A DNA stretch of 39,839 nt from positions 1 to 39,839 of IMG/VR virus record IMGVR_UViG_3300029825_000021; one strand, given 5' to 3'. Origin of the DNA: a virus. Its lineage: Duplodnaviria > Caudoviricetes. How positions within the stretch are numbered: position 1 is the stretch's first letter; every line of letters starts with the position of its first letter. Below are positions 15,313-39,174 of this stretch, piece by piece. Position numbers and translations under genes: made by a program. A model generated the notes under the pieces. It was given only the letters and a program-made list of their open reading frames with translations. It was not told the origin of the DNA and made no database searches.

Positions 15313-15430
15313 GTGACGCACCCCATGCCTAAAGGCAGGGGCTTCTCGCTCGATAACCCTACTGGATTAAGCATAAACGAGCTATCCCCGTGCGCCCCAC
15401 GGTTCTTTATTTTATTGGACAAGCTTTATA
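15293..15430 (-). ncRNA. omegaRNA of TnpB-2; predicted guide CGAACUUAUCACAGUCAACU
   Basis: ACCGTGGGGCGCACGGGGATAGC...GAAGCCCCTGCCTTTAGGCATGGGG scaffold ending in TCAC; 5' boundary approximate. Confidence 0.75.
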
Positions 15431-16596
15431 CCCTCGTTCCTAATATTTATAGCCGCGTTTAGGTCGCGGTTATGATGCGTACCGCACTCACAGTCCCACT
15501 CTCGGTCTGCAAGTGTAAGCATAGAGTTTATCGCTCCGCAAACAGAACACATTTTGCTTGATGGAAACCATTTGTCTATCTTGATAAATGCTTTGCCTTG
15601 CTCTGCGAGCTTATAGGCCATGAATGTTTTGAACATACCAAAACCGTTATCGTTTGTAGATTTACCAAGCTTTAACGAGCCGGCCATTCCTCGCAGATTA
15701 ATATCCTCAACACAGACAATATCCCACTCGTTTGCGAGCGTTCTACTTTGCTTATGAAGCCAGTCTTTGCGGCAGTTCGCAACTCTTTCGTGCATTACCG
15801 CAATGCGCTTCTTCTGCTTTTTGTAGTTGTTACTACCGCGCACCATGCGGCTAAGTTTGTGTTGTTCCCTGCCCAAGTTTTCTTCAGCTTCTCGGTAGAA
15901 ATGGGGCATGTCCGCTTCTATGCCTTGACTATCAACATAGAAGTGGGGACTGCTGTAATCTAATCCAAGGGCTTTATCTGGGCTTAGGTGGCGTTGCGGA
16001 ATTTCGTGTTCGTATTCGGTAAGAATTGACACGAAATACCTACCGCTCGGCGACAGAGAAATGGTACACGATTTAATTGTGTGGCCTTCTGGAATTTGAC
16101 GATGTTGCTTTACACGCACAAGACCAATTTTGGGCAACTTGATATATTTACCATCAATGCGAATGTTGTTACCTTGGTTATTGGTTGTGTACGAATTCTT
16201 GCCACTATGTTTACTTCTGAATCTTGGAAAGCCAACAGACTTATCTCGAAAGAAGTTATTGTACGCCGTTTGTAGTTGTATTTGCGCATTGGCAAGAGCA
16301 AGGTTATCAATTTCGTAAAGCCACTCGTATTCTAGTTTCCATTGCGAATATGTTTTAGGTTTGTTTGATTTGAGTGCATCTTTGTCGTCTTTGTATTGCT
16401 CGTACAGGCTGATTCGCTCGGCAAGCATATGGTTATAAATGAAGCGCACAGAGCCAAACGCTTTTGCGAAATATTCTTTTTGAGTTTTGTTGGGTTCTAA
16501 TTTAAATTTGTACGCTTTGTTTGGCACTGTATCACCTCCTTTTATTGCTCGCCCTTGACCCCATAACTAAAGTTAGGGGATTGCGGGCGAGATCTG
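15313..16596 (-). mobile_element. IS1341-type (tnpB-only) IS200/IS605 element with both ends; putative TAM TTGAA
   Basis: Left-end hairpin CTCGCCC..CCCCTAACTTTAGTTATGGGG..GGGCGAG (16548-16591). Right-end hairpin at 15321-15341 with terminal TCAC. TTGAA at 16601-16597. Confidence 0.9.
15412..16527 (-). CDS. tnpB: TnpB RNA-guided nuclease (371 aa)
   Basis: KAYKFKLEP...FGSVRFIYN; RuvC GLDYSS / VEDI / HNRDLNAA; CSVC..CEC; AGGAGGTG RBS. Confidence 0.95.
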   Translation of the reverse strand: MPNKAYKFKLEPNKTQKEYFAKAFGSVRFIYNHMLAERISLYEQYKDDKDALKSNKPKTYSQWKLEYEWLYEIDNLALANAQIQLQTAYNNFFRDKSVGFPRFRSKHSGKNSYTTNNQGNNIRIDGKYIKLPKIGLVRVKQHRQIPEGHTIKSCTISLSPSGRYFVSILTEYEHEIPQRHLSPDKALGLDYSSPHFYVDSQGIEADMPHFYREAEENLGREQHKLSRMVRGSNNYKKQKKRIAVMHERVANCRKDWLHKQSRTLANEWDIVCVEDINLRGMAGSLKLGKSTNDNGFGMFKTFMAYKLAEQGKAFIKIDKWFPSSKMCSVCGAINSMLTLADREWDCECGTHHNRDLNAAINIRNEGIKLVQ

Positions 16597-37549: not shown

Positions 37550-38185
37550 TTACGCCCTCCTTTGTTTCGCTTTTCGCTTCGCTGCGATTTGTTCATAATG
37601 CGGTGGGATTTCGATAATGTTGCAAGTCTCAACCTCGGCGGGAACTTTCCCATAAAAGATAATTCCAGACGGCGAAAGAACCTCCATCATTTTTTCGTAT
37701 CCCGCTAAAAATGCCCGTTTGCTCTCGGTGCTATTTTGCGTTCCCACGCTTGATACCGCTACTATACTTTCGTGCGGCTCGCCATCAAAGCACCACTCGA
37801 ACGATGCCGGGGTGCTCCACGAAATTGTAGGGTATACAATTACCCCCATCGCTTGCCAGTACGCCGCCAGCCAGTGCTTGCGATAATGATTATAAATTTG
37901 CATTGCAGCCGGCATGTCCGTATACATCGAAAAATCAGGCGAACACACGCAATCAAACCTGCGCAAGGTGCTTATGTATCTATCGGGGGCGTTCCAAAGC
38001 CGGGCAAACTGATAATCATCTATAAAAAAATGTATACCGGCGTTTCCGTCGGCGCTTGTTTTCGCATAATTGAATGGCATCCAGTCTAGATTCTTATTTA
38101 TTTCGTATTCCGGAAGAATCTCCGGGATATCAAGCGCCCCGATCCCCGTAATTTTTAATTTATCCAGGTTTTCAAAGTTTAGCAT
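37550..38185 (-). CDS. DUF4417-family protein
   Basis: HFFIDDYQF.RLW..P.RY; SPDFS.Y.DMP...QIYNHYR.HW...YWQ..G..V.PT.SW; FDGEP. Confidence 0.85.
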   Translation of the reverse strand: MLNFENLDKLKITGIGALDIPEILPEYEINKNLDWMPFNYAKTSADGNAGIHFFIDDYQFARLWNAPDRYISTLRRFDCVCSPDFSMYTDMPAAMQIYNHYRKHWLAAYWQAMGVIVYPTISWSTPASFEWCFDGEPHESIVAVSSVGTQNSTESKRAFLAGYEKMMEVLSPSGIIFYGKVPAEVETCNIIEIPPHYEQIAAKRKAKQRRA

Positions 38186-38284
38186 AATTTCCCTCCTTTT
38201 GCGCTGACCATCATTAACGTTTGGCCCGGTATCGGCACTCTTGCAGACTTCCAAAATTTTCTCAAATTATTTTTCAAAACCCTG

Positions 38285-38313
38285 TTGACACGCCCCGCAA
38301 TGCGTGGTATAAT
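38285..38313 (+). promoter_or_regulatory. Consensus sigma-A promoter with an operator-like palindrome in the spacer
   Basis: TTGACA-17 bp-TATAAT, extended -10 TG, A/T-rich upstream tract; CACGC-N8-GCGTG and CGCA-A-TGCG inverted repeats. Confidence 0.85.
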
Positions 38314-38371
38314 TAAGTCAAGAAAAGCGATAAGTCCTCACCAACAGGGAGGCGCGCAAGGGAGACAGACA

Positions 38372-38593
38372 ATGAAAAAGCAGTGCTTAACACCAGAACG
38401 CGAGGCCCTGATCCGGCAGTACGATAAGGCAATCGGCAGCTACAACCCTGAAACTAATCAGATTGGTACTTTTGACGACGAAAAGGCAGCCCAGGCATAT
38501 GACGCTTTCATGAGCGACATTGAAACCGAAACCGAAGAAAACAAACGATACTTGCTTGATTGCTGGTTCTGGCATGCGCACCTGACTGACTAA
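38372..38593 (+). CDS. Small acidic protein (73 aa; 15 D/E vs 8 K/R)
   Basis: GGGAG RBS + ATG at 38372; first gene after the promoter. Confidence 0.75.
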   Translation: MKKQCLTPEREALIRQYDKAIGSYNPETNQIGTFDDEKAAQAYDAFMSDIETETEENKRYLLDCWFWHAHLTD

Positions 38594-38594
38594 G

Positions 38595-38642
38595 CCGCAC
38601 TGATGAGCCGTAAACGGCGAAACCCCGATAAGGGGTCTGCGG
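38595..38642 (+). ncRNA. Type I hammerhead ribozyme; cleavage predicted after GUC at 38637
   Basis: Stem I CCGCA/TGCGG; core CTGATGA; stem II GCCG-TAAA-CGGC; GAAA; stem III ACCCC-GATAA-GGGGT; then C. Confidence 0.93.
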
Positions 38643-38682
38643 ATAAGCCCCGACCACATGGCGGGCACCCAGGAGGTGTATT

Positions 38683-38952
38683 ATGACTACAGAACTCTAT
38701 CGCTCTTTCGAAGGCAAGCTTGATGTAGAACATCGAAACGGTTTTATCATTTCTGCGCTCGATAATGGCCGGTTGCGCATCAAAACTTTCTCAGTCTATA
38801 CCGATGAGCCGGAATACACCTACTACATAATGCCAACAGAGCAATACAACGCCGATACCACATTTACACACGAAACCGCACGATCACTGCTTGAACAGAT
38901 CCGGCGCGACACTATCAAACCATACCGGGTACAGATCGACAGAAAGGTATAG
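38683..38952 (+). CDS. Small hypothetical protein (89 aa)
   Basis: AGGAGGTG RBS. Confidence 0.75.
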   Translation: MTTELYRSFEGKLDVEHRNGFIISALDNGRLRIKTFSVYTDEPEYTYYIMPTEQYNADTTFTHETARSLLEQIRRDTIKPYRVQIDRKV

Positions 38953-38961
38953 GGCGCGACC

Positions 38962-39150
38962 ATGACAATACCTGAACGCCTAAAGAACGCCCGCGGCACA
39001 CTCTCACAGGCAGCAGCAGCCGCACAGCTCAACATCCCGCTCCGCACCTGGGAGGACTGGGAGCGAGGGGCCAGAACCCCGCCAGAGTATGTGGTGGCAC
39101 TGATCGAGATGGCACTCACCACGCGCCCCGCCCCAAAAGCCTCCGATTAA
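38962..39150 (+). CDS. XRE-family HTH regulator (62 aa)
   Basis: LK.AR..LSQ...A..L.IP.RTWEDWE.G.RTPPEYV. Confidence 0.88.
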   Translation: MTIPERLKNARGTLSQAAAAAQLNIPLRTWEDWERGARTPPEYVVALIEMALTTRPAPKASD

Positions 39151-39166
39151 CCGGGGGCTTATTTTT
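39137..39166 (+). terminator. Intrinsic (probably bidirectional) terminator
   Basis: AAGCCTCCG-ATTAAC-CGGGGGCTT-ATTTTT. Confidence 0.7.
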
Positions 39167-39174
39167 GCCCGGCA

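Follow-up and report, generated by a model that had tools for sequence, protein, structure and literature searches.

An acr-aca-like phage cassette whose mRNA is predicted to be cut by a hammerhead ribozyme between its cargo genes

What is the role of a small transcription unit that runs against nearly every other gene of its phage and carries a putative self-cleaving ribozyme between two of its own? The window analysed here, a virus record of 39,839 nt (39.8 kb) that is complete by CheckV estimate, encodes terminase, an SPP1-type portal, capsid, tape measure, DnaB, an antirepressor and two TnpB proteins, almost all on the minus strand, and the cassette in question lies on the plus strand, upstream of the gene for the terminase small subunit and opposite in direction to the late genes. 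The initial annotation had read this unit as an acr-aca-like anti-defence operon, and as the best candidate in the window for an undescribed system. The antirepressor and a recombinase-type domain suggest that the phage is likely temperate, and genome contigs with the same promoter motif point to a host in the Bacillota, probably in the Clostridia; the source runs of contigs with cassette sequence are wastewater, digester, fermentation and bioreactor metagenomes. We note that a DUF4417 gene (37550–38254, minus strand) starts back-to-back with the cassette promoter, and that the closest relative phage (L001) has no DUF4417 gene in the slot and terS directly next to it instead. The two TnpB/IS605 OrfB genes (296–1495 and 15412–16527, both on the minus strand; PF01385, PF07282 and PF12323 above cut-off) show no link to the cassette.

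All of the parts first listed for the self-contained unit are present, on the plus strand. The promoter (38285–38313) matches the sigma-70/sigma-A consensus TTGACA-17-TATAAT at 12 of 12 positions and is the only site to do so among the three promoter-like sites of the window (2.6 were found in shuffles). Within its spacer lies the predicted operator of the cassette HTH protein, a 15-bp palindrome (38293–38307) centred on A38300 that has a single mismatch, at 38295, to the family consensus CCACGCANTGCGTGG, and the window holds just this one operator-promoter. The initial annotation had given the palindromic spacer an extent of 38289–38307; a conserved palindrome is indeed found, and its conserved part is the shorter stretch given here. 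ORF1 (38372–38593) encodes an acidic orphan protein of 73 aa (pI 4.63) and is exchangeable cargo, replaced in X6 and X10 contigs; a start at TTG 38285 (102 aa) was ruled out, as this codon is the −35 box. A type I hammerhead (38595–38642), predicted to cut 3′ of C38637, starts 1 nt past the ORF1 stop codon. The Shine-Dalgarno sequence AGGAGG of ORF2 (38671–38676) lies inside the 45-nt leader that the predicted cut would leave, and ORF2 itself (38683–38952) encodes an 89-aa protein of a small unnamed family that is predicted to fold into a four-stranded sheet, a helix and a strand. The last gene (38962–39150) encodes a 62-aa XRE-type HTH protein, a predicted autorepressor with the family motif IPxRTxEDWExGxRxPPxY, which scores 27.0 bits against PF13560, a value equal to the cut-off. 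The unit closes with an intrinsic terminator (39137–39167; core 39137–39160) that overlaps the HTH stop codon and that, given an A-run before its stem, may also be usable by the converging minus-strand genes.

The hammerhead has the complete core, with CUGAUGA at 38600–38606, GAAA at 38619–38622 and the cleavage triplet GUC at 38635–38637 (pattern CUGANGA/GAAA/NUH), and its three stems of 5, 4 and 5 bp include an open-ended stem I, the arrangement of type I. It is the minimum free energy fold of its sequence, with which the centroid agrees (z = −2.9; none of 200 shuffles was as good), and it is the only pattern match in the window, where 100 mononucleotide shuffles gave 0.01 loose and 0 strong matches per shuffle. 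In an Rfam scan it was absent at gathering level and listed only below cut-off, by HH9 (21.2 bits against a cut-off of 52, E = 0.021) and RAGATH-1 (20.9 against 56.3 bits), both of which are models of other hammerhead subfamilies. Among nine distinct aligned relatives, 5 of 14 stem pairs are changed on both sides; a pattern spanning the core and stem II had served to select these relatives, so that invariance in those parts is a given. Loop II ends in an invariant A in 10 aligned sequences, and no pseudoknot is visible by eye as a contact between loop II and stem I. The one variant seen within the hammerhead among contigs falls in loop III. We consider the window hammerhead very likely to be active as a ribozyme.

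Cleavage after C38637 would fall 44 nt past the ORF1 stop codon and 45 nt before the ORF2 start, and a hairpin is predicted within the resulting 45-nt leader. The predicted unpaired fraction of the ORF2 ribosome-binding site changes little with cleavage (0.57 versus 0.60), a result by which unmasking of this site by the cut was ruled out in the window. A ribozyme pair yielding circular RNA was likewise rejected: the window contains one hammerhead only, with no Rfam match of another class, and the further hammerhead trace found in the window search is a core fragment (E = 0.59). No raw RNA reads were found to contain the stretch; one of the runs with related contigs, X20, is labelled as RNA but is probably DNA, and contributed contigs only.

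Does the HTH protein control the cassette? A scan of viral contigs for TTGAC-N3-CCNCGCANTGCGNGG-TA gave 122 loci, and a homologous HTH gene lies no more than 2.5 kb downstream in 71 of the 73 whose downstream sequence is 1800 nt or longer (49 shorter loci were left out); the two misses are on one contig. The corresponding figure for genome contigs is 17 of 28 motif loci, the 11 misses including imperfect motifs that precede housekeeping genes and, on a single contig, a pair without an HTH gene. When the search was run in reverse, by HTH, about half of 80 metagenome loci proved to have the operator or a close variant of it; many of the others were short, divergent or missed by the 17-nt-spacer rule. 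In family promoters the palindrome fills the spacer between −35 and −10. On the basis of this association we think it highly likely that the HTH protein autorepresses the cassette promoter through the spacer palindrome. The sequences also indicate that the cassette is one of a wide family found mainly in Clostridia phages. Its closest relative, in L001, has an HTH 80% identical to that of the window, an identical promoter spacer and the same slot, with different cargo and no hammerhead.

Several loci show variations on this arrangement. In L001 (3001–3609) the reading frame of the HTH gene runs on into the cargo gene behind it, which codes for about 134 aa and is preceded by a ribosome-binding site of its own; this represents a fusion or a lost stop codon. 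Fusion to an N- or C-terminal domain, which may be cargo in its own right, is seen in many HTHs of the family. Operator-promoters also stand before operons without an HTH gene of their own, in L097 (minus strand, 2524–2496 and about 1084–1056) and in L157/L179, which suggests that one repressor may act over several operons. RAGATH-21 and GP20-b RNAs lie on the strand opposite the operator-promoter, a short distance upstream of it (L053, 1982–2137; L092, 2656–2811). Streptococcal phages carry the same HTH family, and in Streptococcus phage PH15 (L269, 1633–2650) a 12/12 promoter with the near-identical operator GCACGCAATGCGTGC lies behind the lysin gene, followed by two small ORFs and a fused HTH, making this a candidate acr locus. 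A position behind the lysin gene is a usual one for acr genes.

The cargo of the family is variable. From 75 cassettes we obtained 137 cargo ORFs, automatic calls of which a few are probably spurious, and these fall into 51 clusters and 36 layouts. When about 117 representatives were scanned against Pfam, homologues of AcrIC5 (PF22147, above the cut-off of 27) were found in six loci, of which five (L106, L190, L198, L214 and L223) form one near-identical group and L180 stands apart; the L106 unit consists of promoter, acrIC5, HTH gene and terminator and nothing more. AcrIC5 has been described as an inhibitor of type I-C that has been tested and that has orthologues in Firmicutes (PMC7913775), and the AcrIB2 preprint describes AcrIC5-baited loci in clostridial phages. 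A homologue of ArdC is encoded directly behind a hammerhead in L187 (ArdcN 57.4 bits, MPTase 96.9 bits). Known anti-defence matches thus number 7 among about 117 cargo ORFs, from three lineages, a small minority; the other named matches are HTH domains and one GNAT, and most of the remaining cargo is unnamed. Thus the expectation of the initial annotation that loci with this HTH would show variable small-ORF cargo and known Acrs was borne out and, at the level of the family, so was the acr-aca-like layout, with operator and HTH travelling together, changing cargo and known anti-defence genes in sister cassettes. Two further genes are plausible counter-defence leads, one encoding a Cas5-like N-terminus downstream of the HTH (L169, 3246–4244; 21.3 bits, under the cut-off of 23) and the other, a cargo gene, the GNAT acetyltransferase (L194, 1900–2289).

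For the cargo of the window itself the picture is different. Neither ORF1 nor ORF2 has an Acr or other family match in Pfam, PHROGs or NCBIfam, ORF2 has no PDB sequence match, and a single-protein scan gave no viral relatives of either. ORF2 has three close homologues and 29 matches among 50%-cluster representatives, two of which are long repeat proteins. Fold searches gave no accepted match, the best hits being KhtT for ORF2 (Z = 6.1, rmsd 2.4, 59 aligned) and a hit with Z = 6.3 for ORF1 (rmsd 3.1, 60 aligned), and a search of BFVD gave none at E ≤ 0.001. A DM13 look-alike of ORF2 from the Atlas (0.86) was under the acceptance bar, and an AP2 match on ORF1 (E = 0.029; 15 versus 33 bits) was not accepted. 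Distant ORF2 homologues (L262–L267) belong to other operons of small ORFs, preceded by strong promoters of which some have a palindromic spacer, and the ribozyme pattern matched in none of these six loci. The anti-defence role that the initial annotation assigned to the operon is therefore supported by association for the family, through AcrIC5 and ArdC in sister cassettes; ORF1 and ORF2 of the window, which lack a family, sequence or fold match, are candidates only. We put the chance that at least one cargo protein of the window cassette is anti-defence at slightly better than even.

Is the ribozyme part of the system? After the 148 cassette loci were collapsed, 4 of 78 distinct cassettes carry one, two of them hammerheads and two twisters. 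The twisters, of the P5 type, were found in an Rfam scan of 100 loci (L097, 59.4 bits; L221, 54.6 bits; cut-off 37.6), and the second hammerhead, unrelated to that of the window, was found in L187 by pattern search. All four are in cassettes with two or more cargo genes (4 of 34, as against none of the 44 with fewer), and none was found in 256 kb of cassette flanks. Each lies between cargo genes and starts at a stop codon or no more than about ten bases from one; the predicted cuts fall 18–53 nt past the stop codon and leave leaders of 40–51 nt. None stands directly before the HTH gene, the order is ribozyme, ORF, HTH in three of the four, and L221, whose operator is perfect, has exactly the layout of the window cassette (promoter-ORF-ribozyme-ORF-HTH). 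The nominal chance that the three ribozymes other than the query would all fall inside cassettes, whose sense strand makes up 11% of the searched sequence, is about 0.001, a rough figure in that the twister pattern was written from two matches and the flanks are mostly coding. Hammerhead model R1 missed L187 and is thus insensitive to divergent hammerheads, and pistol, hatchet and HDV types were sought by Rfam only, in the 100 loci.

No ribozyme was detected in the other 74 of the 78 cassettes, L001 included, and an obligatory ribozyme was thereby ruled out; together with the six loci of distant ORF2 homologues, these cassettes indicate that neither the regulon nor ORF2 needs one. The hammerheads that the initial annotation expected at sister loci are therefore seen in part: ribozymes do recur at cargo boundaries, but in four cassettes only, and two of these are twisters. 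Because the ribozyme is non-defining, we do not regard the cassette as an integrated new system, and the suggestion of an undescribed system was not upheld, the ribozyme being an occasional add-on and hammerheads between prophage genes, including ardA, being already published. We note that a near-identical hammerhead occurs in five loci (L018, L019, L021, L027 and L029) in an unrelated small-ORF operon without the cassette operator, where it follows an ORF of 161 aa that contains an HPD motif and looks J-domain-like on visual inspection; these loci have palindromic-spacer promoters, and the ribosome-binding site abuts stem I within a 20-nt leader. The downstream promoter of L019 contains the palindrome TATACGCTAATAGCGTATA, which resembles the Aca10 operator and is followed by a gene for a related HTH.

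Taken as a whole, we think the cassette is probably an exchangeable, autorepressed early cassette for counter-defence or host manipulation whose mRNA is cut by the hammerhead between its cargo genes. Host polymerase would fire the perfect promoter on DNA entry and express the two small cargo genes and the HTH gene, the cargo providing an early counter-defence or host-manipulation protein, until an HTH dimer occupies the −35/−10 spacer and closes the promoter. The cut would leave an ORF1 message that starts with a 5′-triphosphate and has a cyclic phosphate at its other end, together with a 5′-OH message for ORF2 and the HTH protein with the 45-nt leader. RNase J1 is a decay factor for 5′-OH RNA pieces in Bacillota. 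If the 5′-OH piece decayed faster in a Bacillota host, less ORF2 and repressor would be made per transcript and the ORF1 pulse would be longer, so that the ribozyme would delay shut-off and not sharpen it. We favour this timing, at somewhat less than even chances, by analogy with glmS: in Gram-positives, once this ribozyme has cleaved, the mRNA downstream of it is degraded (reviewed in PMC6765202). The opposite timing, after the burst followed by shut-off that the initial annotation proposed, would have cleavage stabilise the ORF2-repressor message relative to that of ORF1 and give a short ORF1 burst with fast shut-off. 5′-OH ends do resist 5′-monophosphate-dependent decay in some bacteria, the leader has its predicted hairpin and the 3′ piece keeps the terminator, but the glmS precedent and the probable Bacillota host both argue against it, and we consider it unlikely.

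Other readings give the ribozyme, or the cassette, a different purpose. Allele swaps bear on one of these, in which the ribozyme is an insulator or module joint that provides ORF2 and the HTH gene with a fixed 5′ leader whatever the upstream gene, its short shared sequence serving as a crossover point and mRNA stability being secondary. In an X6 contig the promoter region is kept, ORF1 is replaced by 393 other bases and the sequence rejoins at 38591, the hammerhead edge, after which hammerhead, ORF2, HTH gene and terminator follow with 3 differences in 619 nt; X10, from another study, has the same joint. Other contigs in X4, X6 and X20 have the same 33–36 nt of the hammerhead 5′ half with other flanks, and the near-identical hammerhead of the unrelated operon and the similar lengths of post-cut leaders fit this reading too. 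Cargo turnover is, however, just as free in the 74 cassettes without a ribozyme, a second joint in X10 (38361 to 38953) takes out ORF1, the ribozyme and ORF2 at once, and breakpoints at gene ends are expected anyway, and we hold this reading to be rather doubtful. None of the run contigs covers the stretch from end to end; L182 shares promoter, hammerhead and all three proteins with it, and may itself be the source of the window. The observation that cleavage by an engineered twister in a 5′ UTR left expression unchanged in E. coli (PMC5052635) supports either the joint reading or one in which the hammerhead cuts but is merely tolerated, having arrived with the ORF2 module into an mRNA in which each gene has its own ribosome-binding site. 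Such a passenger, with no selected role, would agree with the rarity of ribozymes in the family and with the unaltered predicted accessibility of the ORF2 ribosome-binding site. Against it stand two unrelated ribozyme classes in the same kind of position with none in the flanks, and a core and stems that are intact, with covariation; of the readings considered here we find it the least probable.

The cargo might also serve lysogeny, superinfection exclusion or host modulation in place of counter-defence, as a moron whose dose the HTH protein limits in the prophage. This would accord with the lack of functional matches for ORF1 and ORF2, with a phage that is likely temperate and with a slot that can be empty, as in X9, where 38242 is joined to 39173 with 70 nt between; X9 and X1 both join across the whole slot, with a shorter side of only 29 nt, so that this evidence is weak. 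Yet the cargo matches that do bear counter-defence names are AcrIC5 and ArdC, and PH15 has its near-identical operator behind the lysin gene, and we therefore see the moron reading as possible and on the unlikely side.

On the reading of a counter-defence or host-manipulation cassette, what we describe is an Aca-type regulon, acr-aca-like in its workings, with a ribozyme of a published kind as an occasional add-on, and no new system. A broader proposition, which we advance tentatively, is that a widespread family of Aca-type repressors in Clostridia phages, unnumbered so far and recognised by its operator, marks dozens of uncharacterised counter-defence genes, and that phages repeatedly recruit ribozymes of different classes as a post-transcriptional dial of the cargo-to-repressor ratio. 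What role self-cleaving ribozymes play in bacteria and phages has been reviewed as largely open (PMC6765202), and if this proposition is true bacterial hammerheads and twisters would gain a defined biological job. The family supplies natural controls under one regulator, in the form of cassettes with a hammerhead, a twister or none; alleles that swap the upstream gene alone offer a further matched comparison for ribozyme function, and, in a unit of 0.9 kb that includes a feedback loop, a mutant with an inactive ribozyme would give a clear read-out. The operator, in turn, is a simple DNA bait, with which the viral set by itself yielded the 51 cargo clusters, almost none of them named; since it led to AcrIC5 and ArdC homologues, it offers candidate anti-defence proteins for gut and digester Clostridia.

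How does the cassette compare with known systems? With the acr-aca operons described for Aca1, Aca2, Aca10, Aca11 and Aca12 (PMC13551039, PMC12282945, PMC9410881) it shares a strong promoter with an inverted repeat in or over −35/−10, variable small cargo, an HTH gene in last place or close to it, apparent control over nearby operons without an HTH gene (L097, L157/L179) and, in sister cassettes, a validated Acr family, AcrIC5, among the cargo; the window copy has no known Acr. The tested binding sites of Aca11 and Aca13 are described as inverted repeats between −35 and −10 (PMC12282945), and that of Aca10 as an inverted repeat overlapping both boxes. The cassette HTH matches Aca10 no better than it does generic XRE proteins (7XI5, E = 2.5e-6, below HigA2 and Atu1735), and the Aca10 operator, ATACGCTCATTGAGCGTAT (PMC9410881), differs from that of the cassette; identity with Aca10 was ruled out on both counts. 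Because streptococcal phages carry the HTH family and PH15 has a near-identical operator, the cassette HTH may nonetheless be kin to a numbered Aca family. The operator string was not found in the open-access literature searched, nor was a paper joining ribozymes with acr operons; a 2026 survey of Aca proteins reports RNA motifs between genes, with no mention of ribozymes in its main text (PMC13551039).

The closest published parallel to the ribozyme is that of Perreault et al. 2011 (PMC3088659), who describe hammerheads flanking variable single prophage genes or gene blocks, ardA among them, report cleavage of tandem prophage hammerheads in vitro and, for the ardA-flanking set, also in E. coli, and hypothesise processing into gene-length mRNAs. 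These have in common with the cassette a consensus hammerhead in a phage intergenic gap, inconstant flanking genes, a proposed splitting of the mRNA into gene-length pieces and a link to anti-restriction, whereas the cassette has a single ribozyme inside an operon controlled by an operator and an HTH protein, and that ribozyme is interchangeable with a twister and absent from most family members. With glmS, finally, the cassette would share a self-made cut that lies upstream of a gene in an mRNA of Gram-positives and a 5′-OH downstream fragment; glmS, however, is triggered by a metabolite and lies in a 5′ UTR, whereas the cassette hammerhead is minimal, probably constitutive and situated between genes.
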